Assembly (NCBI GenBank): GCA_944345705.1
Contig: CALVML010000006.1
Span: forward strand, 2,202 to 66,201
DNA from: an uncultured Clostridia bacterium
GTDB taxonomy: Bacteria > Bacillota > Clostridia > Christensenellales > UBA1242
DNA: 64,000 nt
Reading direction: 5' to 3'
The notes under the pieces are model-generated. The model saw only the letters and a program-made list of their open reading frames with translations, ran no database searches and was not told the DNA's origin. Position numbers and translations under genes: made by a program. Positions within the stretch are counted from its first letter, which is position 1; every line of letters begins with the position of its first letter. Positions 5,735 through 63,615 of the stretch are shown here, one piece after another.

Positions 5735-6931
5735 ATGGACGATTTTAAAAGAACTTCTATTGCAAAAATTAAGGTTATCGGTGTTGGCGGTGGCGGAAAC
5801 AACGCTGTCAATAGAATGATAGAAGCAGGCGTAAGCTCAGCTGAATTTGTTGCAGTAAACACTGATCAACAGACTTTGCTTGTAAGCAAGGCTGAAACAA
5901 GATTGCAGATTGGCGAGCGTTTGACTGGTGGTCTTGGCGCTGGTGCTAGACCAGAAGTTGGTCAAAAGGCTGCAGAAGAGAGTAAATCATCGATCACTGA
6001 AGTGCTAAAAGGTACAAACCTTGTATTTATCACTGCCGGCATGGGCGGTGGTACAGGTACAGGCGCCGCTCCAGTAATCGCACAGATTGCAAAGGAACTT
6101 GGAATTCTTACAATAGCAGTCATTACAAAGCCTTTCAATTTTGAAGGACAGCAGAGAGCAAAAAATGCTGAAGAAGGCGTTGAAAGACTTCGCAAATATG
6201 TAGATGCACTTGTTGTAATTCCAAATGAAAAATTGCTTGAAATCGTTCCTAAGAAAACTCCACTCAAAGAGTCATTTAGATTTGCTGATGATGTTTTAAG
6301 ACAGGGCGTTCAAGGGATTAGCGATCTTATTGTATATCCTGGACTTATCAATCTTGACTTTGCCGATGTTACAACTATTATGAAAGATAAGGGACTCGCT
6401 CACATGGGTATTGGTTATGGCAAGGGTGATAATAAAGCACTTGATGCGGTAAAACAGGCGGTTGCAAGTCCACTACTTGAAACTACAATCGAAGGCGCAA
6501 CAGGACTTTTGATCAATATCAAAGGTGGTAACGACCTTACTCAAGACGATTTAAGTGAAGCCGCTGCACTTGTAAGAGAAGTAGTTGACGACAGCTGTAA
6601 CATAATTCTCGGTACAAGCATTGATGAGAATATGCATGACGAAGTTGAAATCACTTTGATTGCTACAGGCTTCCAAAATGGTGAAGAAAAGAAGGATGAC
6701 GCGCGAAACAGCGAAATGGAAAACGCAAGATCTATAGGTAATATGGGACAAAGCCAGCCTTTCTCTGCAAGAAGCATGTTCTCAAATTATATGCAGAAGG
6801 AAAAGGAAGAGGAAAGTGCAAGACCTAATGTTCAGGTTAAAGAGTCTGACAACTTCTCATCTTCTAGAGTTGAAGTTAAATCATCTGATGTTCCACCATG
6901 GATTGAAAAGTTAAGAAGAAATAAGAAATAA
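5735..6931 (+). CDS. ftsZ: Cell division GTPase FtsZ
   Basis: [13 protein letters not shown] and the tubulin signature [15 protein letters not shown]; good RBS AAGGAGA. Confidence 0.98.
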
Positions 6932-6937
6932 GTAAAG

Positions 6938-6977
6938 ATATCAGGAAAATCTCTAAACTAGATTTCCTGATTTTTTT
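6938..6977 (+). terminator. Rho-independent terminator after ftsZ
   Basis: Hairpin ATCAGGAAA(A)TC...GATTTCCTGAT followed by a T7 run. Confidence 0.7.
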
Positions 6978-7065
6978 GTATTCATTTATAAAAAATATCT
7001 AAAAATCAAAATGTACATTGAAAAATCAAAGAGAATGTGCTAAACTATTGATAAGGAGAAATAAT

Positions 7066-7323
7066 ATGGGAATTTTGAAAACTACTTGTGATGTTGCATA
7101 TAAGATCTGCGATGGAATTTTCAGCGGACTTGGACTCGATAAGCCTATCAGTTTTTTAACTGACCTTTTTAAAACTTCTTTAACTTTTAAGGGTGGCATG
7201 TTTGATAAAAATAGAGGGAAAGGTGATGCTCTTGCAAGACAGTTGCATCGCGAAAGAATGGAAGCGGCAGCGGAAAGACAGGCTGCACTTGATGCAATGA
7301 GGCGCGATTTACAAGAACTTTAA
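7066..7323 (+). CDS. Hypothetical small protein (85 aa)
   Basis: ATG 7066 is preceded by AAGGAGA, whereas the track start at 7018 has no RBS. C-terminal Arg/Ala-rich helix (RQLHRERMEAAAERQAALDAMRRDL). No family recognised. Confidence 0.5.
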   Translation: MGILKTTCDVAYKICDGIFSGLGLDKPISFLTDLFKTSLTFKGGMFDKNRGKGDALARQLHRERMEAAAERQAALDAMRRDLQEL

Positions 7324-7641
7324 TAATAGTATCACAACTTATCATTCTTGAAAATTATAAAAACTTAATACATTTAGATTGTCTTTAAGTTGCTTTTTAG
7401 GCTATAAAGAATTATCGCTTAAAAAGAAATTAAACGACAATCTTTTTTTATCTTCAATTTTATAAATTTAAAAAGAAATTTAAAAAACTTATTCCCTATA
7501 AAAAGTAAATTTTGTGCAATTTTCGTCATGATTGTATAAAGCCAAAATTTTAAGGATATGTTACAATTTCTATGCAAGCGGAAGAGCGTTTCTAGGAAAA
7601 TATTTAGGTCTTTAGATTAAAATTTTTCAAAAGGAGCTGGC

Positions 7642-8439
7642 ATGGAAATCAATATAGAAATTTCATTTATAGTAAATTTTGCGCTTAATTTTTTTATATT
7701 GAAACTAGCGTCACTTTTCTTGCGAAAACAGCTTAAATTTGGCTTTATCTCGGCGTTTATCTCATCTATTATTGCACTTCTCTCGCCCTTAATAACGGCT
7801 GTTTATTTAAAAATCATCATAGCCCTTTTAACCTGTCTTTTCATGCTCTTTCTATCTTTTGAAAACAAGACTTTTAAGGAGTATTTAGTCTGTTTTCTTG
7901 TGATTGTCCTTGCAACATTTTTGTTCGGGGGCGGGTGTCTTGCGGTAGAGAGTTTTACAGGACAATTTCCGCTTTTTGTAGTTGCTATCATTGGTCTTAC
8001 TATCTATATAATTGCAAGTTCAATATGTCGATATCAAAAGCGAAAGAATATAATCGCAAACTTTACTCATTCGGTGGTCTTCAAAGATGGCGGACTTGAG
8101 TTAAAAGAAAAAGCCTTTTTAGATAGTGGCAATATGCTCTACGATAGTGTGACTAAAAAGCCGATAATACTTGTGACCTATGATGTGTTTTCACAGTTTT
8201 ATAAGGATATATCTTTCATAAAAGCATGGACTAAGCAGACTGAGGGTTTTGATATCAAGAATGGTCACTATATAAACATCAATGGTGTTGGCAAGGGTAG
8301 TCGCATGCTTGTTTTTATGATCGATGAAGTGATAGTAGATAAAGATAAGAAATTCAAAAATGTTATGCTGGGACTTTCTTTTGCAGGCTTTGATAAAAGT
8401 TTTGGCGCGAAGGTGCTTTTGCACAGTGAACTTGTTTAA
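7642..8439 (+). CDS. spoIIGA: Sigma-E processing peptidase SpoIIGA
   Basis: N-terminal multi-TM region plus a C-terminal aspartic-protease-like FLDSGNMLYD motif; immediately upstream of sigE as in all sporeformers. Confidence 0.85.
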   Translation: MEINIEISFIVNFALNFFILKLASLFLRKQLKFGFISAFISSIIALLSPLITAVYLKIIIALLTCLFMLFLSFENKTFKEYLVCFLVIVLATFLFGGGCLAVESFTGQFPLFVVAIIGLTIYIIASSICRYQKRKNIIANFTHSVVFKDGGLELKEKAFLDSGNMLYDSVTKKPIILVTYDVFSQFYKDISFIKAWTKQTEGFDIKNGHYININGVGKGSRMLVFMIDEVIVDKDKKFKNVMLGLSFAGFDKSFGAKVLLHSELV

Positions 8440-42317: not shown

Positions 42318-43258
42318 AAACTTTAAAACAAAGACTAAAAAGCGGACTTGACAATTTCTATCTTCTTCAAGGCGAAGATAGTTATTTGTATGATAGGGCA
42401 CTTTCGATGATTAAAAAAGCTTGCAACATTTCCTTTCCTGATTTTAATTATCAGTTTTTTGACGATGAAAATTTTTCGGCAAACGCCCTTCGAGCAAGCC
42501 TCGAAAGTATGCCTTTCTCAGACGAAAAAAGATTGTCTGTTGTAAAAAACGTTGAAAAATTATCTGAAAACGACAAAAAAATCATCATATCCTATTGCGA
42601 AAATCCGCTTTCTTCAAGCGTGCTTGTGGTTTGCGACTATGCAAATAAATTTGATTTTTTAAAGCCCTATTCGCAGTTTGTAGATTGCAAACGCTTTGAT
42701 TATGCACTCGCAAAGGCAATTATTGTAAATGATTTCGCAAAATACAACAAGAAGATAAGCGAAGAGGCGATCACTGCTCTGTATGACAGTTGCAATGGCT
42801 ATCTTTCAAAGATTTCGCTTGAAATACAAAAAATATCCGCCTACCTTGGTGATGAGGAGTTTGTTACAAAACAGGTTGTCGACAACTTGACCAGCAAGGA
42901 TAGCGAATATATGGTTTTTGAACTTACTGAAAGTCTAGGCGCGAAGAAAACAAGTCGGGCAATCGAACTTTTAAACCTTATGCTTAAACAACAAGGACTT
43001 TTGGCTCTCATTACAAATCATTTTCGAAGACTATTTTTTATTTCCATTTCAGATCAAGACAACAAAACGCTTGCAAATCTTCTCGGTGTCAAGGAGTATG
43101 CAGTTGCCAAAATGCGCACGCAAGTTAAAAACTTTTCAAAAGTGCAACTTAAAAAGATCTATTCTCTCCTTGAAGAAGTTGATTATATGATAAAAAGTGG
43201 TGCAATGCTACAAGATACAGCATTAAATTATCTCGTCTTTTCAATACTTAATATATGA
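42314..43258 (+). CDS. holA: DNA polymerase III delta subunit HolA
   Basis: 314 aa. N-terminal ...FYLLQGEDSYLYDRAL... pattern and the conserved comEC-holA synteny. Start overlaps the comEC stop. Confidence 0.8.
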   Translation: MKTLKQRLKSGLDNFYLLQGEDSYLYDRALSMIKKACNISFPDFNYQFFDDENFSANALRASLESMPFSDEKRLSVVKNVEKLSENDKKIIISYCENPLSSSVLVVCDYANKFDFLKPYSQFVDCKRFDYALAKAIIVNDFAKYNKKISEEAITALYDSCNGYLSKISLEIQKISAYLGDEEFVTKQVVDNLTSKDSEYMVFELTESLGAKKTSRAIELLNLMLKQQGLLALITNHFRRLFFISISDQDNKTLANLLGVKEYAVAKMRTQVKNFSKVQLKKIYSLLEEVDYMIKSGAMLQDTALNYLVFSILNI

Positions 43259-43299
43259 TAAGGATATAACAAGGACAAAACTTAAATTACAATTTACAA

Positions 43300-43500
43300 A
43301 AATTCAGTGAAAATTTCATATAATATCTAGTCAGAATTTTTAAAAAAATCTAGTAAAATTTCAAGGAAAGTCTACCAAGTTTTAAATAAGAAATTGGCTC
43401 AGATTTTCAATTTGACTTTGCTCACTTAAATATAGAAATTTGTCAGATTTTAATTTATGTTTGGCTAGTTTTTAATAAGATAATTAGCCGTTTTTTCATA
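43300..43500 (+). repeat. Iteron-like array: about 8 degenerate direct repeats at roughly 21-22-bp spacing
   Basis: Recurrent (C)TAG/CAG-N-(A/T)TTTT(C/A)A cores at about 43309, 43335, 43355, 43377, 43402, 43445, 43466 and 43489. Confidence 0.5.
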
Positions 43501-44060
43501 AAAGCCTTATCAAGACTAATAAATTTATTTTTTCGAAATTAAGCAAACATAATTTAAAAATTTAAAACAGCATAGTTATGTTTTCATAACAATGTTATAT
43601 TTTTAGTTATTATTACCGAAAGAGAGTAGCTAAGTAACTTTTTCGAGCGCAAACTATTGCTTGTTTTCTTGTAGTTTGGTAATTCTTTGATATCTATTTG
43701 ACTTTACATAAAATCAAATTAAAACTAGCATAGTTATTAAAACATAATTATGCTAATTTTTAGATATGATTACTTTGATCTTTAAGTGCTTTAAGTATAT
43801 CTTTGCATGTATTTATTGTGAGAATATGATATTGTATTTTTAAGTAATCATAGATAATAATGCAGAAAAAAAATATCATTTGCTTTAATGTGCCGAGATT
43901 TTGAATATTTTGTGAAGCCGATCATGCATACTAATTCTGTTTTTTATTTTATCAAGTGTAGTTGAAAACTTACATAGTTATAAAAACATGACTATGTATA
44001 TCATTATCATCATCATTAAATGATTTTATAAACAATTTTAAAGCGTTGGAGGGTTAAATC

Positions 44061-44178
44061 GAAGTAAAACTTGCAAACTTATTTTGAAAAATATAGAGTT
44101 GAGAGAATTTATGAATTTAGTTTTTGACTCTACACAAAACTGATTTAAAACTTACATAGTTATGAAAACATAACTATG
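44061..44178 (+). repeat. About 118-bp direct repeat, copy 1
   Basis: GAAGTAAAACTTGCAAACTTATTTTGAAAAATATAGAGTTGAGAGAATTTATGAATTTAGTTTTTGACTC... ending in the palindrome. Near-identical copy at 44386-44502. Confidence 0.85.
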
Positions 44179-44385
44179 CTAGCTTTTAGTTATACTATGT
44201 TTTTTAGTTATGATTTCCGCAAGAGAGTGGTTAAGCCACTTTCTCGAGCGCAAGCTATTAACTGTTTTTGCTGGATAGTTATTAAAACATAACTATGTAA
44301 TATTATTAAATTTAATCTTTTAATGCACGAAATTTAATCTTTATTAAGCAAATTTGAAACGTTTTTTTGGTAGGGGGGGGGAACT

Positions 44386-44502
44386 GAAGTAAGCCCTGCA
44401 AACTTATTTTGAAAAATATGGAGTTGAGAGAATTTAAGAATTTAGTTTTTGACTTTACATAAAATCGATTAAAAGTAGCATAGTTATGAAAACATAACTA
44501 TG
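44386..44502 (+). repeat. About 118-bp direct repeat, copy 2 (preceded by a G9 tract at 44373-44381)
   Basis: GAAGTAAGCCCTGCAAACTTATTTTGAAAAATATGGAGTTGAGAGAATTTAAGAATTTAGTTTTTGACTT... ending in the palindrome. Confidence 0.85.
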
Positions 44503-44639
44503 TTACTTTTTTTATTTAGATATTTTGTTTTTAGTAATTTTGATGTAAGGTTTATCTATGGCAGTTAGTATGTAAAATTTCAAAAAAAGATATTGTTCGT
44601 ATAATATATTTGCTTTTTAATATGGATCTTTATTAAATT

Positions 44640-45018
44640 TATATTATCGGAAGCCGAACTTGCTTGCAAGGGTGAGGCTGATGGTTATACATACTATGTG
44701 ATGAGTATGCGTTAGCATACAAATTCGCCAGAATTTATAAAATTTTATGATAATAAAATTTTAACATCACTTAGTTTATATTATCGGAAGCCGAACTTGC
44801 TTGCAAGAGTGAGGCTGATGGTTATACATACTGTGTGATAAGTATGCGTTAGCATACAAATTCGCCAGAATTTATAAAATTTTATGATAATAAAATTTTA
44901 ACATCACATTGTTTATATTATCTGAAGTCGAACCAAGCGTGACGAAGTCGCATTTGAGTGAGACTGATGGTTATACATACTGTGATGGACATAATTTATT
45001 GTGTTTTTGCGTTTAGTA
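44640..45018 (+). repeat. Tandem array of a 137-bp structured repeat (2 full units + 1 divergent truncated unit)
   Basis: Units start with TATATTATCGG at 44640 and 44777 and with TATATTATCTG at 44914. Each unit holds hairpins CTTGC-TT-GCAAG, GTATGC-GTTA-GCATAC and TAAAATTTTAT..ATAAAATTTTA, within an ACTATGTGATG/CATCAC.TAGT closing repeat. Confidence 0.9.
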
Positions 45019-45066
45019 ATAACTTATAAGCCTTTCATAAATGTAGACATCGACATCAGTTTTCAT
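45013..45066 (-). CDS. Candidate 17-aa micro-ORF (MKTDVDVYIYERLISYY)
   Basis: ATG at 45066 lies 5 nt after AAAGGAGA, stop TAA at 45013-45015. Divergent from the XRE gene. No conservation evidence is available. Confidence 0.25.
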   Translation of the reverse strand: MKTDVDVYIYERLISYY

Positions 45067-45120
45067 ATTCATCTCCTTTTTGTTATTACCTATATCTAAT
45101 TATACATATTTTAAATATTT

Positions 45121-45148
45121 TTGCAAATAATTTCAATAGATGTAATAT
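45121..45148 (+). promoter_or_regulatory. Candidate promoter of the XRE gene
   Basis: TTGCAA (45121-45126), 16-nt spacer, TAATAT (45143-45148). Confidence 0.4.
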
Positions 45149-45183
45149 GCATACTTTAATTCTTAATAATGTAAAATAAATGC

Positions 45184-45507
45184 ATGAAAGAAATTGATAA
45201 AAAATACATAGGTCAAAGAATTGCAACTCTTAGAAATGCAAAAAAGATATCAGCTAGAAATATGAGTTTAGATTTAGGGCAGAGTAGTGAGTATATAAAT
45301 CAAATAGAAAACGGCAGGAATTTTCCGTCACTAGAGGGGCTTTTAAATATTTGCGAATATTTTAATATTTCTATTGCCGAATTTTTTGATGAACAAAATA
45401 CCTATCCTTTGCAATATAAACAACTGATTTCACAATTAAACAAGTTAGACAATAGTGAACTTGATCTCATCATCGAATTAGTAAAATTAATAACAAAAGA
45501 TAAATAG
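45184..45507 (+). CDS. XRE-family helix-turn-helix transcriptional regulator (107 aa)
   Basis: IGQRIATLRNAKKISARNMSLDLGQSSEYINQIENGRNFPSLEGLLNICEYFNISIAEFF is a classic HTH_3/Cro-C1 domain. Confidence 0.85.
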   Translation: MKEIDKKYIGQRIATLRNAKKISARNMSLDLGQSSEYINQIENGRNFPSLEGLLNICEYFNISIAEFFDEQNTYPLQYKQLISQLNKLDNSELDLIIELVKLITKDK

Positions 45508-45576
45508 ATAAAATAAAACAGATATTTGTTAGTTTTCAAATTAAAAATAATTAAAATAAAATCATTTTAAATTAAA

Positions 45577-45610
45577 AACAACATAGTTATTAAAACATAA
45601 CTATGTTGTT
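45577..45610 (+). terminator. Seventh palindrome copy acting as terminator of the XRE gene
   Basis: AACAACATAGTTAT-TAAA-ACATAACTATGTTGTT followed by TTTTGTTTT, about 70 nt after the stop codon. Confidence 0.65.
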
Positions 45611-45824
45611 TTTGTTTTATTAAGTTGTTTGATTTTTGACAGATAATGATTGATTTAGTGTATTTACAGTTACAAGTGGAACAATTTTTTAAATGTTCAA
45701 AAATAAATATTTTTGGTGAAATCAAAAGAAGTCGTCTTTAGGAGAATTCGATTTTGTCATAATTTGCCAGTTTTTTAGTTTTGCATTATTGTTTATTCAA
45801 AATGGATTTTTCTTTAAATATCTC

Positions 45825-45871
45825 TCTTACAATAGTAAGAATTGATTATTTTTTTTTTTACTATTGTGAGA
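45825..45871 (+). promoter_or_regulatory. Operator-like inverted repeat with a T11 tract upstream of the second XRE gene
   Basis: TCTTACAATAGTAA (45825-45838) pairs with TTACTATTGTGAGA (45858-45871) with one mismatch. T11 run at 45849-45859. Confidence 0.45.
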
Positions 45872-45881
45872 AAATAACGTC

Positions 45882-46088
45882 ATGAACAACAAATTTAAAG
45901 AAATTCTTAAATCATTAAGAATAGAAAACAATGTTACTCAGCCACAACTTGCTACCGCAATAGGAGTAAGCAATGGTTTAATAAGTCTATGGGAAAATGG
46001 CTTGCGTGAACCGACAATGTCGAATTTGATCGTGCTAGCCAAATTTTTTCATGTAAGCATAGACTATTTAGTTGGGCTTGAAGATTAA
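45882..46088 (+). CDS. XRE-family helix-turn-helix transcriptional regulator (68 aa)
   Basis: LKSLRIENNVTQPQLATAIGVSNGLISLWENGLREPTMSNLIVLAKFFHVSIDYLVG is an HTH_3 domain only. Confidence 0.85.
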   Translation: MNNKFKEILKSLRIENNVTQPQLATAIGVSNGLISLWENGLREPTMSNLIVLAKFFHVSIDYLVGLED

Positions 46089-46268
46089 GATGATTTCTGC
46101 ATACCTGTATTAAAACATTTTTATTAACATATATAACATTATCAAATTTTAAATCTTTTGATTTCAAATATATAATACCAAAAAAGAAAAGACAATGTCA
46201 AACCATTTCTTACATTTGTAAGAATTTTTTTATAATATTAAAAAGTGATAGGGGGGGGAATAATATAT

Positions 46269-46838
46269 ACTATGTGATGTTAAAATTTTATGATCATAAA
46301 ATTTTAATAAATTCTGGCGAATTTGTATGCTAACGCATACTTATCACATAGTATGTATAACCATCAGCCTCACCCTTGCAAGCAAGTTCGGCTTCCGATA
46401 ATATAAACAATGTGATGTTAAAATTTTACTATCATAAAATTTAATAAATTCTGGCGAATTTGTGTGCTAATGCACACTCATCACATAGTATGTATAACCA
46501 TCAGTCTCACTCAAATGCGATTTTATCGCGCTTGGTTCGGCTTCCGATAATATAAACAATGTGATGTTAAAATTTTACTATCATAAAATTTTATAAATTC
46601 TGTCGAATTTGTGTGCTAACGCATACTCATCACATAGTATGTATAACCATCAGCCTCACCCTTGCAAGCAAGTTCGGCTTCCGATAATATAGACTATATG
46701 ATGTTAAAATTTAAGCAAGTTAAATTTTAAATTTGCTAAACGCAAAAACACAATAAATTGTGTTCATCACAGTATGTATGACCATCAGTCTCACTCAAAT
46801 GCGATTTCATCGCGCTTGGTTCGACTTCCGATAATATA
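46269..46838 (-). repeat. Inverted-orientation tandem array of the same structured repeat (4 units, 137-149 bp)
   Basis: On the + strand: units at 46269-46405, 46406-46554, 46555-46691 and 46692-46838 (divergent). They are the reverse complement of the 44.64-kb units. Preceded by a G8 tract at 46251-46258. Confidence 0.9.
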
Positions 46839-46909
46839 AAAACTGTATAAGTATATAAAAAATATGATCTTATCATTTTTTTATTATAATCTTAACTGAA
46901 AACATTTAT

Positions 46910-60140: not shown

Positions 60141-60174
60141 GGCTTGCCTTGTGGCAAGCCCTTTCAATTTTTTT
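60141..60174 (+). terminator. Rho-independent terminator after ligA
   Basis: GGCTTGCC-TTGT-GGCAAGCC followed by CTTTCAATTTTTTT. Confidence 0.8.
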
Positions 60175-60255: not shown

Positions 60256-60284
60256 TTGACTATTTTTGTAAAAAATGTTACAAT
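60256..60284 (+). promoter_or_regulatory. Promoter of the RiPP operon
   Basis: TTGACT (60256-60261), 17-nt spacer, extended -10 TGTTACAAT (60276-60284). Confidence 0.65.
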
Positions 60285-60332: not shown

Positions 60333-60437
60333 ATGAAAAAGGCAAAAAAAATCACTAGAATTAAAATCGACAATTTAATTGATAATAGTCGTTTTGCAAA
60401 AGGTGATGGTTGGTCTAAAACAGACAATGCTTATTGA
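60333..60437 (+). CDS. RiPP precursor peptide, streptide-like KxxxW family (34 aa)
   Basis: MKKAKKITRIKIDNLIDNSRFAKGDGWSKTDNAY. RBS GGAGGAGG lies 5 nt upstream. The stop overlaps the radical-SAM start. AKGDGW equals the streptide core motif. Below the ORF-track size cutoff. Confidence 0.75.
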   Translation: MKKAKKITRIKIDNLIDNSRFAKGDGWSKTDNAY

Positions 60438-61770
60438 TTTATATCAATTAAGAGAAGGCATCATAGTGCGCCTTGAATATTTTGGTGGAATGATAATAGA
60501 CATAGTTAATAATGCCTATTATCAAATACCAAAATATGACGCATTAGTTTTATTTTGCTTAAAATATGAAAATAATATCAATGTAATTATCAATGAAATA
60601 TTAACCAAATTAGACATAAAAAAAGAAACATTTGATTGCAATTTATATGAAAAAGAAAATTTCATAGTCAAAATAAGTCAAAAAAATAATATTCATCGTG
60701 ATAATTTAAACTTATATTTATATATTAAAGATATTTTAAATAACATTGAAAATATAAATCACTTATCAGCGCCTTTAAATATATCCATTTATCCTTCTTT
60801 TTCCTGTCAAGCAAATTGCAATTTTTGTTATGTTAAAAATTATTGCAAAGACGATCATAGAATCATGCAGTTTCATGTTTTAAAAAAACTTATAGACGAT
60901 ATTGAAAGATTACAAATACCTTATGTTTCAATTTTGGGTGGTGAACCACTTTTACTGCCATATATAGAAGAGTTATTAGATTATATGTCAAAGAAACGCA
61001 TTATTTTCAATATAACAACGAATGGTTGGTTGTTAAATGAAAAAGTTATGTATTATATAAAAAAATTTAAAAATATTAATTTGTCAATTTCTTTACAAAG
61101 TATTGATAATTATCATACATTAGCAACAAAACTTAATTATAAAGAGATAATAAACAATATAAAAAATACTAGAGGCAATTGCAGAATTAATACTGTATAC
61201 ATAAATCAAACTTTCGAACAATTAGAAAAACTTGTTGATTTTGTTTATAACGAGGGAATAAAAACCTTTACATTGGCACTATATAATAATGTTAAATTGA
61301 ATCCAAAAGAACAAAATAATAATCACATAAAATTTTTAAACGCAAAACAGCATTTAAATAAATACATTAAAAGTAAACACTACGATATTGACTTTCGTGC
61401 AGAAGGCTGTTTACAGTATTTATTTGAGCAAAAAGTCAAAATAATTCCAAAAACGGATATAGAAAAAATTTTTACAAAGTGTGAGGCAGGTAATTTAAAA
61501 CTTGAAATTATGCCTAACGGAGATACAATCGGTTGCATGGCACTAGATAATAATTTTTTTAAAAGTGGAAATATTTTTGATAACAAATTAGAGGATATAT
61601 GGAATCATGATGAGAAGTTAAATTTATTAAGAAACTCACTATGTAAAGTAAGCGAGTGTAAAAACTGTAAATATTATTCTTTCTGCAATGGTGGATGTAC
61701 TGCGCAAAGATTTTTAACGAATAAGAATTTTGAAAAAGTAAAGGATGGAAGATGTTTAAAGAAAGCATAA
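60427..61770 (+). CDS. Radical SAM/SPASM peptide maturase (KxxxW cyclic-peptide type)
   Basis: CxxxCxxC cluster SCQANCNFCY, ILGGEPLL, and a C-terminal SPASM motif CKNCKYYSFCNGGC plus upstream CEAG..GC. ATG 60427 is chosen because the track start at 60379 lies inside the precursor ORF in another frame. Confidence 0.85.
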   Translation: MLIDLYQLREGIIVRLEYFGGMIIDIVNNAYYQIPKYDALVLFCLKYENNINVIINEILTKLDIKKETFDCNLYEKENFIVKISQKNNIHRDNLNLYLYIKDILNNIENINHLSAPLNISIYPSFSCQANCNFCYVKNYCKDDHRIMQFHVLKKLIDDIERLQIPYVSILGGEPLLLPYIEELLDYMSKKRIIFNITTNGWLLNEKVMYYIKKFKNINLSISLQSIDNYHTLATKLNYKEIINNIKNTRGNCRINTVYINQTFEQLEKLVDFVYNEGIKTFTLALYNNVKLNPKEQNNNHIKFLNAKQHLNKYIKSKHYDIDFRAEGCLQYLFEQKVKIIPKTDIEKIFTKCEAGNLKLEIMPNGDTIGCMALDNNFFKSGNIFDNKLEDIWNHDEKLNLLRNSLCKVSECKNCKYYSFCNGGCTAQRFLTNKNFEKVKDGRCLKKA

Positions 61771-63449
61771 ATTTTGAAGAATATAAAAAATTCAAAGCAA
61801 AATTTGAGTGTTTTGTTTTAGATGAGCAGTGGAGATATTCTCTAATGTTTGATTGTTTTTTAAGTGACAAAGTGAGAAATGAGACAACTAGAATGATAGA
61901 TTTTTTTACTGCTAATCCAAGGCCTAGTGATGTTTCAAAATATTTAAATTATTTAAGAAAAGAAGGTTTAAATCTTTTATATGAAAGTCAAAAACAAAAA
62001 GATGTAAGGCATTCTTGGGCAGAAGTGAGAGAATCTTATGCGTATTATGGATTAATTGAAGTTATAACAGAGGGCTCTAGTTATAGTGAAAATTTAATAG
62101 GCGAATTACAAGAAATTTATGGCGATAAGTATTTAACTGTGTTATCGGAAATCGACAATTCATCTCCATCAAAACTTACCAATTTCTCACAAAATAGTAA
62201 TGTAAATTTGTTTGATAATAATGATACGGTAAATAAATATTTGCTATTAAAAAAATGGCAAGACGAGCAAAATATATATCATAATAAAAAATTATATCCT
62301 ATTTTTTCAAAGTATAGAGATGAATTTAAAAAAGAATATGTAGCACGATATGGTGAAGTTGAATGTAGTGCTAGAGAGATGCTAGTATTGTCAGATTTGA
62401 GAGAACAATCAATTTTGCCTATTGACACATTAGCAATTTGGATAGATATTGGACTCGGAAATGAGTTAACAACAGTTATAGGTGGAAAAAATTATGGACT
62501 TGCACTATTAAAACAACACGAGCTTAATATTCCTAATACTTGGACTTTAACTTTAAATTCAAACTTAGATGAAAATTTTATACAAAATTTACCTTCAAAA
62601 TTTAATTATGCAATTCGTAGTTCTGCAAACGGCGAAGATGGTCAAAAAAATTCATTTGCTGGAATGTTTGATACAATTTTAGATGTTAATAAAAGTGATA
62701 TTTTAAATGCTGTCAATAAGGTTAAATATTCTTGCCAAAATTCTCGTGTTGCAGCATATATACAAAAATTTAATCTTCAACAACCAGAAATGTCCATTGT
62801 AATTCAAGAATTTATTCCTGCAGATATTTCAGGGGTATGGCTTGGCAGGGAAGAAAATTCTGGTATACTCGAGTGGGTAAATGGCAGCGGAGATCAGCTA
62901 GTATCTGGCACAATAACGCCAACAACTGAAATGATAAATTATAAAGCTGATATAAATAGTTTAAAGATAAACGGAAAGTATGTTGGAGATATTTTATTAT
63001 CATATCAAAAGAAAGTGGGCAAAATTTGTGATTTTGAATTTTGTATCAAAGATGATATATTGTACATGTTACAATATCGCCCTGTAACAGAAATTATTAC
63101 ACAACAAAGTGAAAATGATAATAGTAAAGTCAACGGAACGCCTGCATCAAAGGGAGTTGTCGAAGGTGAAGTTTGCTTTTTAGAAGATGTAGATGATATT
63201 GATAAATTTAAACCAAATACCATCCTGTTGACATATTATACCGATCCTGACTGGACAGAGGCTTTAGTGAGAGCAAAAGCAATAGTGACAGCAGAGGGCG
63301 GATTTCTATGTCATACAGCTATTATTGCAAGGGAACTAGGTATTCCTTGCATTACAGGAATAGGAAAGAAAAATTTAAAAAAATTAGCGAAATGCAAACA
63401 AATTGTGGTTAACGGAAATACTGGTGGCATAAAAGAATTGCATAATTAA
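61752..63449 (+). CDS. PEP-utilising-enzyme family protein (PPDK_N ATP-grasp + C-terminal mobile His domain), putative peptide-modifying phosphotransferase
   Basis: VIGGKNYGLALL...IPNTW...AIRSSANGEDGQKNSFAGMFDT...SIVIQEFIPADISGVW...GSGDQLVSGTITP (PEP/pyruvate-binding ATP-grasp). GTPASKGVVEGEV...ILLTYYTDPDWTEALVRAKAIVTAEGGFLCHTAIIARELGIPCITG (swivelling His domain). Start overlaps the rSAM gene by 19 nt. Confidence 0.8.
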   Translation: MFKESINFEEYKKFKAKFECFVLDEQWRYSLMFDCFLSDKVRNETTRMIDFFTANPRPSDVSKYLNYLRKEGLNLLYESQKQKDVRHSWAEVRESYAYYGLIEVITEGSSYSENLIGELQEIYGDKYLTVLSEIDNSSPSKLTNFSQNSNVNLFDNNDTVNKYLLLKKWQDEQNIYHNKKLYPIFSKYRDEFKKEYVARYGEVECSAREMLVLSDLREQSILPIDTLAIWIDIGLGNELTTVIGGKNYGLALLKQHELNIPNTWTLTLNSNLDENFIQNLPSKFNYAIRSSANGEDGQKNSFAGMFDTILDVNKSDILNAVNKVKYSCQNSRVAAYIQKFNLQQPEMSIVIQEFIPADISGVWLGREENSGILEWVNGSGDQLVSGTITPTTEMINYKADINSLKINGKYVGDILLSYQKKVGKICDFEFCIKDDILYMLQYRPVTEIITQQSENDNSKVNGTPASKGVVEGEVCFLEDVDDIDKFKPNTILLTYYTDPDWTEALVRAKAIVTAEGGFLCHTAIIARELGIPCITGIGKKNLKKLAKCKQIVVNGNTGGIKELHN

Positions 63450-63472: not shown

Positions 63473-63540
63473 AGGTAGCAAGTTAACATTTATTTTGACA
63501 GCACTTTTTAACCGATGCTACCTTTTTTTTGCTAATCAAT
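63473..63540 (+). terminator. Terminator of the RiPP operon
   Basis: AGGTAGCA...TGCTACCT followed by a T8 run. Confidence 0.6.
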
Positions 63541-63585: not shown

Positions 63586-63615
63586 TTGACAATTCGCTGT
63601 TGTTGGTTTAAAATA
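63586..63615 (+). promoter_or_regulatory. Promoter of the downstream membrane protein gene
   Basis: TTGACA (63586-63591), 18-nt spacer, TAAAAT (63610-63615). Confidence 0.5.

Follow-up and report, generated by a model that had tools for sequence, protein, structure and literature searches.

In streptide-type products a cross-link joins the beta-carbon of a lysine to C7 of a tryptophan. The cross-linked motif of streptide is KGDGW, and the link is made by StrB-type enzymes (PMC5491770). In streptococcal streptide clusters a protease/transporter comes after the radical S-adenosylmethionine (rSAM) gene (PMC5491770, PMC9389541). The locus analyzed here is a three-gene operon (60333-63449, forward strand) found in a 64,000-nucleotide stretch of DNA from an uncultured Clostridia bacterium (contig CALVML010000006.1, positions 2,202 to 66,201); this whole stretch is called the window, and coordinates refer to it. 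The operon encodes a streptide-type precursor peptide, an rSAM peptide cyclase resembling StrB and SuiB and, as last gene, an enzyme related to phosphoenolpyruvate (PEP)-utilising dikinases, which probably phosphorylates the peptide.

The acceptors known for the dikinase superfamily, to which PEP synthase (PpsA), pyruvate phosphate dikinase (PPDK) and rifampin phosphotransferase (RPH) belong, are pyruvate, starch, phenols, rifamycins and prodiginine precursors. Phosphorylation is also known among peptides made on ribosomes and modified after translation (RiPPs), the enzymes including LanL/LanKC and the kinases of class III, IV and V lanthipeptides (LxmK in class V), TvaC in thioamitides, and the lasso-peptide kinase PadeK. 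The proposed activity resembles theirs in being an ATP-dependent phosphorylation of a ribosomal peptide, with phosphate as either a transient leaving group or the final modification. In contrast, the known RiPP kinases are protein-kinase-, APH- or HPr-kinase-like and transfer the gamma-phosphate directly, whereas a dikinase would pass on the beta-phosphate by way of a phospho-histidine relay. No dikinase-type enzyme in RiPP biosynthesis was found in the full-text literature searched, which included review or expansion papers on RiPPs made by rSAM enzymes (RaS-RiPPs) and lies apart from much of the subscription literature. The novelty lies in the enzyme class, a dikinase, and in its partner; the idea of a phospho-RiPP as such is not new. 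An earlier interpretation of the window made from the letters alone (the sequence-only reading) had considered this chemistry not established in RiPP tailoring; that view agrees with the literature searched as regards the dikinase class, but is too broad for RiPP phosphorylation as such.

The precursor gene (60333-60437, forward strand) follows a AGGAGGAGGG ribosome-binding site and encodes 34 aa (MKKAKKITRIKIDNLIDNSRFAKGDGWSKTDNAY), with a Lys-rich leader and an exact KGDGW (KxxxW) in the core. The sole NCBIfam match is to TIGR04079 (KxxxW-cyclized peptide pheromone), at 25.2 bits, below the cutoff of 35. The pattern ..(R/H)F(S/A/K)KGDGW.. is kept in the precursors of eight other clusters. 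The identity of the RiPP as a streptide-type KGDGW peptide is a point absent from the sequence-only reading.

The second gene (60427-61770, forward strand) encodes a protein with Pfam Radical_SAM and SPASM matches. Of the NCBIfam models, TIGR04080 (KxxxW cyclic peptide rSAM maturase) matches it best, end-to-end at 155 bits, below the 500-bit equivalog cutoff, and its top PDB match is SuiB (5v1q, E 6e-40, residues 6-441). The reading frame, uninterrupted from TTG 60379 on, runs over the 3' end of the precursor gene and has ATG codons at 60406 and 60427; the N-termini of homologs make ATG 60427 the most likely start, with an 11-nt overlap with the precursor stop.

The locus is similar to the str, sui and aga RaS-RiPP clusters in having a KGDGW precursor with a SuiB/StrB-like rSAM-SPASM gene immediately downstream. 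It differs from them because the third gene is dikinase-like, in place of the StrC peptidase/transporter, and the hosts are uncultured low-GC gut Bacillota, not streptococci. Further differences are the score of the rSAM protein, which falls under the TIGR04080 equivalog cutoff, and the M16 peptidase that the closest relatives of the window cluster add. Neither StrC nor the shp/rgg quorum-sensing module was found at the window operon, ligA and a terminator lying upstream instead. Streptide-type KxxxW peptides are in this way extended past streptococci to uncultured gut Bacillota, and a further modification of them is predicted.

The third gene (61752-63449, forward strand) starts with ATG and encodes 565 aa. 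Three regions can be told apart: an N-terminal all-alpha domain (residues 1-236, 61752-62459; structural models and profile searches), a compact ATP-grasp domain (about residues 237-455, 62460-63116; Pfam PPDK_N, PpsA/RPH alignments and Foldseek), and a linker followed by a mobile phospho-histidine (swivel) domain (residues 456-565 and stop codon, 63117-63449; Pfam PEP-utilizers). PPDK_N (PF01326) is matched at 105.5 bits (cutoff 27, E 4e-30), best over residues 284-396, the domain being opened by a GGK motif at 244-246. PEP-utilizers (PF00391) is matched at 76.3 bits (cutoff 23.1, E 1e-21) over residues 486-558, and over the full length of the model (1-72 of 72). No Pfam match to the TIM barrel PEP-utilizers_C (PF02896) was obtained, and the protein stops 7 residues past the His domain. 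An insert of the RPH type is absent as well, about 30 residues separating the ATP-grasp and His domains.

The motifs GGKNYGLALL, RSSANGEDGQKNSFAGMFDT, GSGDQLVSG and GGFLCHTAIIARELGIPCITG are all found in the protein, and RSSANGEDGQKNSFAGMFDT, LYMLQYRPVT and GGFLCHTAIIARELGIPC align with the corresponding motifs of PpsA (8a8e) and RPH (5fbs) in phmmer searches of PDB. His521 (codon 63312-63314), located within GGFLCHTAIIARELGIPC and in a motif of the form GGxx(S/T/C)H, aligns with the His of GGRTSH in PpsA 8a8e, the conserved phospho-histidine motif of the family. Conservation was assessed in a 60-sequence alignment, reaching down to 33% identity and used also as input to AlphaFold2 (AF2). Invariant in the catalytic domains are K246 (of GGK), R289, which begins an R-S-S-A motif, S290, S291, E295, D296, D427, E429, Q441, R443, H521 and C533; the ATP- and Mg-binding roles of such residues are established for PPDK and PpsA, and are carried over by the PpsA/RPH alignments. 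The AF2 model of the whole protein (predicted local distance difference test, pLDDT, 90.1; predicted template modelling score, pTM, 0.87) features nine helices in residues 8-233, then the compact ATP-grasp and the swivel domain. The top Foldseek matches of this model have E values from 1e-16 to 1e-12, and include PPDK (1kbl, E 1.6e-16) and RPH (5hv3, E 1.2e-14); HpeI (9goj) is also in the list. To judge from these residues and matches, the catalytic machinery is intact, and the protein is a member of the PEP-utilising superfamily of PpsA, PPDK and RPH.

Relatives of the dikinase-like protein amount to 172 among 5.8 billion proteins. Most are 545-600 aa long and cover 95-100% of the query, and the N-terminal region therefore belongs to the family. 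There is a protein 99% identical to it (P0001), and full-length homologs number more than 100, so the gene is real and intact. In a separate scan of a genome collection, made with patterns derived from the His domain, which is common to PpsA, 5 of 80 loci were true family members. Members of one subclade (P0029, P0018, P0026, P0027) carry a C-terminal NUDIX domain and measure about 745-749 aa. In P0099 (494 aa, from a 4.6-kb ENA contig) a nonribosomal peptide synthetase condensation domain continues in frame into the C-terminal ~160 residues of a protein 96% identical to the window enzyme; the two meet at a shared ILLSYQKK, as the result of chimeric assembly or of real recombination.

The N-terminal domain modelled alone (pLDDT 91.1) is made of nine helices, with no beta-sheet. 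Pfam returned only noise for it (best E 0.043), and the family profile of the domain found only a spurious match among PDB sequences (best E 0.04). Foldseek searches with the model gave best E values of 0.79 in PDB and 0.66 in BFVD, with TM-scores of about 0.2. A HMMER profile of the domain, run against 1.84 billion cluster representatives, retrieved 114 proteins (85 with E <= 1e-10), and every one has the same ~550-640-aa architecture or is a fragment of it; no relatives were found by scanning viral contigs with the profile. By the searches of Pfam, PDB, BFVD and the cluster representatives, this is an orphan, family-specific domain.

RiPP recognition elements (RREs) are winged-helix folds about 85 aa in length, whose three-stranded beta-sheet pairs with the leader peptide. 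An RRE-like (PqqD-type) fold, which the sequence-only reading had proposed to look for in the N-terminal domain, was rejected: the model is all-helical, no PqqD-like match was found by Foldseek, and the hhalign comparison with the N-terminal 120 residues of the rSAM protein, the part that aligns with the N-terminal domain of SuiB, gave a probability of 0.5%. The other structural claims of that reading (an unknown N-terminal domain, an ATP-grasp and a phospho-His domain in this frame, no pyruvate-binding TIM barrel, kinship with RPH and PpsA) were confirmed by Pfam, motifs and model, by the NCBIfam, phmmer and Foldseek matches and, for the novelty of the N-terminal domain, by the Pfam, PDB-sequence and Foldseek results.

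Invariant or nearly invariant positions of the N-terminal domain are E103, E107, Y127, D135, S140, Y163, K167, W169, Q170 and D171, the motif KYLxLKKWQD being recognizable; invariant polar residues are E103, E107, D135, Y163, K167 and Q170. Among the more distant homologs, mean identity to the window protein is 25% in the N-terminal domain, 43% in the ATP-grasp and 46% in the His domain. The N-terminal domain evolves faster than the catalytic domains, as expected of a specificity domain. It is proposed to bind the acceptor substrate, the peptide, and would serve as a specificity/catalytic domain of the enzyme. An orphan-fold domain with an invariant polar cluster is defined, which is open to direct testing.

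RPH is the mechanistically closest known enzyme. Like Listeria RPH (PDB 5hv1/5fbs), the window protein combines an ATP-grasp and a swivel His domain, lacks the TIM barrel, and has a separate, largely family-specific domain for what would be a non-metabolic acceptor; the reaction expected is ATP + acceptor + H2O -> AMP + Pi + phospho-acceptor. In RPH, however, an acceptor domain of about 430 aa lies between the ATP-grasp and His domains, whereas here the corresponding domain is N-terminal, 236 aa long and unrelated by sequence or fold search; in addition, the ATP-grasp is about 100 residues shorter, and the partner is a RiPP cluster, RPH being a stand-alone resistance gene. The score against the RPH model (NF041857) is 113.6 bits vs. 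a cutoff of 999, and identity with RPH was rejected, the rifampin-binding domain between ATP-grasp and His domains being absent; nor did the Foldseek search with the N-terminal domain retrieve RPH. PpsA and PPDK provide the best HMM and structural matches; as in these enzymes the swivel His domain comes directly after the ATP-grasp, and nucleotide, Mg and His motifs are kept. The dikinase-like protein differs by having no C-terminal TIM barrel and an extra N-terminal helical domain, and is therefore not a metabolic enzyme. PigC/RedH and phenylphosphate synthase-type dikinases, superfamily enzymes working on secondary-metabolite or aromatic acceptors, are matched at 115-120 bits; these enzymes are far larger, or are divided into subunits, and have other acceptor domains, and the window protein is far below their cutoffs. 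Identity with PigC or RedH was rejected on the same grounds (120 vs. 1300 bits and 115 vs. 1350, respectively; 565 aa vs. an architecture of ~880 aa).

The rSAM stop codon (61768-61770) lies downstream of the dikinase ATG (61752), so that 19 nt are common to both genes; a AAGGATGGA ribosome-binding site directly precedes the ATG. Genomic neighbourhoods were compared in 19 distinct contexts, the window included, which were chosen for long contigs and are neither a random sample nor a census. An rSAM gene is adjacent in 15 of the 19, and a candidate precursor is present in 16. KGDGW precursors are found in nine (window, L001/2, L003, L004-6, L011, L012, L093, L094, L098), and in all nine the rSAM and dikinase genes overlap by exactly 19 nt, at protein identities of 41% to 73%. 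The rSAM proteins of these clusters are orthologous to that of the window (31-63% identity over the seven that were scored, the frames from L001 and L098 not being usable). Identities of the dikinase and of the partner rSAM protein drop in parallel (64/63, 51/47, 48/39 and 41/34 percent). In four of the nine KGDGW clusters, an overlapping fourth gene downstream encodes an M16-type peptidase of about 355 aa, matched mostly by Peptidase_M16_C (L001 7730-8806; L003 7721-8779; L093 6727-7800; L094 6727-7812). This is presumably the leader peptidase of the closest relatives; none is present in the window operon.

More distant members (about 35-40% identity) adjoin other rSAM systems, and the subgroups of the dikinase track the precursor families, namely KGDGW, GGNYC/GNGNC, SFSKSYCxGGESK and Cys-rich. 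Cys-rich precursors (...ECGGNYCSDVC, ...AGNGNCSDCC) occur with one to three rSAM genes in three clusters, two of which (L009, L091) also include a YcaO gene, and one (L009) an aminotransferase. Precursors ending in SFSKSYC(F/Y)GGESK, possibly a Kxxx-aromatic variant, are found in L013 (10083-10196) and L096 (5113-5223), together with an RsgA-like P-loop protein and a 540-550-aa dikinase subgroup. L098 hosts two paralogous family members (12-1685 and 6001-7731), with a PedC-like thioredoxin gene between; one is associated with a KGDGW precursor and a StrB-like rSAM protein that the gene calls split in two (130 + 344 aa), and the other with a different rSAM protein and a 64-aa CxCxC-rich peptide. 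In L007, a NUDIX-fused form (P0029, 749 aa; 6001-8250) resides beside genes for an rSAM protein, a PP2C phosphatase and an APH-type kinase. The precursor of this cluster (44 aa, ..ACNNLDACGCTGNGNC) is rich in Ser/Thr and Cys, and a second small open reading frame (ORF) upstream has a KxxxW-like KISEW. Phosphatase and kinase point to phospho chemistry on a Ser/Thr-rich peptide.

Both the substrate and the chemistry of the dikinase we infer. Given intact catalysis, an orphan N-terminal domain, translational coupling and co-variation with the precursor, peptide phosphotransfer is the most economical reading: the enzyme would be a dikinase-type, ATP-dependent phosphotransferase dedicated to the ribosomal peptide pathway, passing phosphate to a peptide held by the N-terminal domain. 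The probability of this reading is put at roughly 0.5. ATP and Mg would be bound by the compact ATP-grasp domain, and His521 on the swivel domain would be pyrophosphorylated, the gamma-phosphate going to water and the beta-phosphate being kept on His, as in the mechanism of the superfamily. The swivel domain would then dock on the N-terminal helical domain, which would stand in for PpsA's pyruvate TIM barrel or RPH's rifampin-binding domain, and would hold the precursor peptide, probably after the StrB-like rSAM enzyme has installed the Lys-Trp cross-link in KGDGW. The phosphoryl group would move from His521 to an acceptor on the peptide, with release of AMP and Pi, as with RPH and PpsA. Candidate acceptors are a variable Ser/Thr/Tyr hydroxyl near the ring, the carboxylate of the invariant KGDGW Asp, and the C-terminal carboxylate; phosphate may either stay on the product (+80 Da) or act as a leaving group.

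A broader proposal is slightly more doubtful, falling a little short of even odds. Here the family would represent a new RiPP tailoring class of about 100 clusters in uncultured gut Bacillota, in which a swivel dikinase with an orphan N-terminal domain captures rSAM-modified peptides of at least four unrelated precursor families, and phosphorylates or phospho-activates them. Were this true, there would be phosphorylated or further-cyclised streptide-like peptides, forms that have not been seen so far. For the dikinase mechanism, a peptide as acceptor would be a substrate class of a new kind, and the dikinase would be a new enzyme type in RiPP tailoring. With only three genes, co-expression in E. 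coli with a mass spectrometry readout is feasible.

Several observations weigh against phosphotransfer to the peptide. In precursor alignments no hydroxyl was found at a fixed position, so that an obvious phospho-acceptor is missing from the KGDGW cores: the position preceding the Lys holds Ala in the window precursor and Ser or Lys in others, and some cores terminate at the Trp. The cores of the different families are very dissimilar, and the partner could be a feature that rSAM pathways have in common, not the core peptide. The set of contexts is small, and four of the 19 (L015, L095, L096, L099) have no rSAM gene within about 5-8 kb, as determined by tblastn for L015 and L095 and from precomputed Pfam calls for L096 and L099. 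Three of the four also have no recognisable precursor. L096 has a precursor and no rSAM gene within 6 kb, and in L015 both are absent; L095 is surrounded by phage-type genes (Bro-N/ORF6N), and L099 is flanked by genes for AbiEii, a helix-turn-helix (HTH) protein, an MBL-fold protein and a NERD helicase. Because of the contexts devoid of rSAM, some of them among phage- or defence-type genes, a peptide substrate is likely, not secure. The sequence-only reading had deduced the RiPP substrate from tight coupling to the rSAM gene, and had regarded homologs mostly devoid of rSAM or precursor neighbours as the pattern that would speak against it. The coupling is real and recurs throughout the KGDGW set, and most homologs do have these neighbours; the deduction gains from both, and is weakened by the four exceptions.

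Among other explanations, the one that survives best, though unlikely, is phospho-activation, by which a carboxylate or carbonyl oxygen of the peptide (KGDGW Asp, Glu, or the C-terminus) is phosphorylated and the phosphate then displaced; the product would be a lactam, an imide, an amide or a dehydrated form, with a net change of -18 Da or as an adduct. An analogous role is proposed for PigC/RedH, and both proteins are among the better NCBIfam matches (120 and 115 bits), if far under their cutoffs (1300 and 1350 bits). The Asp is the sole conserved functional side chain of KGDGW free of the Lys-Trp link, Asp or Glu is found near Gly in all four precursor families, and no conserved hydroxyl acceptor is evident. 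Asp and Glu are, however, common residues, and their presence carries little weight; moreover, no obvious nucleophile or ligase-type partner is encoded in the three-gene operon.

Less probable still is a role in immunity or resistance, the enzyme inactivating a mature or imported peptide by phosphorylation, as RPH does with rifampin, and so protecting the cell. The superfamily is the same, neither an exporter nor a dedicated immunity gene is found in the operon, and the orphan copies in L095, L099 and L015 sit in mobile, phage- or defence-type neighbourhoods, like stand-alone resistance genes. The exact 19-nt coupling to the cyclase in all nine KGDGW clusters suggests instead a stoichiometric biosynthetic partner, no PADLOC match was obtained, and streptide-type peptides are not known to be toxic. 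Membership in an anti-phage defence family was rejected, PADLOC having no match to the dikinase and matching the rSAM protein to pVip only generically; in PHROGs just a generic 'kinase' match, to the His domain of the dikinase, was found.

It is improbable that the substrate is no peptide at all, but a small molecule, a nucleotide or a protein (rSAM turnover, a mobile-element or defence function), and that linkage to the RiPP reflects co-mobilisation. The four contexts without rSAM, three of them also without precursor, fit this explanation, as do the NUDIX fusions of one subclade, which hint at nucleotide/diphosphate chemistry, the G+C content of the operon (24-31% vs. ~35%), and the location of L001 among mobile-element-type genes. 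Yet the dikinase co-varies with precursor family and partner rSAM, the gene overlap is invariant, and the N-terminal domain is, in the Foldseek searches of PDB and BFVD, unlike known nucleotide- or small-molecule-binding folds. An ordinary metabolic PEP synthase or PPDK, as some relatives are annotated in source databases ('pyruvate, water dikinase') and as the best NCBIfam matches, to PpsA models, might suggest, can safely be set aside, since the PEP/pyruvate TIM barrel is missing, scores are far below cutoff (NF005057, 161 bits vs. 598; TIGR01418, 140 vs. 740), and the protein is 565 aa long vs. ~790 aa in PpsA.

The operon is delimited on both sides. Upstream lies ligA, with a terminator hairpin at 60141-60160, followed on the forward strand by a promoter-like site (60256-60284; TTGACT, 17 nt, TG-TACAAT), a pattern match only, with 10 of 12 consensus matches and an extended -10 TG in a consensus scan. 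Past the dikinase gene, a terminator-like hairpin (AGGUAGCA...UGCUACCU, then eight U; 63473-63531, forward strand), for which evidence is modest (-13.5 kcal/mol, z = -1.9 by RNA folding), would mark the operon end; the next gene is unrelated, and has its own promoter-like site at 63586-63614 in the promoter scan. Precursor, rSAM and dikinase genes are the only ORFs between the two terminators. G+C content amounts to 24% in the 60-62 kb interval and to 31% in the 62-64 kb interval, while most of the window has ~35%; this suggests horizontal acquisition. In L001 (2384-13746) the orthologous cluster resides among genes for a LexA-like repressor, a sigma factor, DUF3846, a Toprim primase and a DNA methylase. 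Low G+C, insertion between ligA and an unrelated gene, and the L001 neighbours suggest that the cluster travels on mobile elements.

A distinct region of the window (43258-46900; ~3.6 kb, 26% G+C) is nearly ORF-free, save for two XRE-type HTH genes (45184-45507 and 45882-46088). Rfam had no match in this region, and zero over the whole window. Tandem units of ~137 nt (44638-44933) are found again in reverse complement, as an array of 137-149-nt units spanning 46260-46730. The inverted arms that they form together (about 44617-45019 vs. 46299-46846) are 91-97% complementary, and bracket both HTH genes. The region also hosts a ~45-nt palindromic hairpin element (GCATAGTTATGAAAACATAACTATGC-like) in five or six copies, at 43560, 43718, 44144, 44275, 44468 and 45571.

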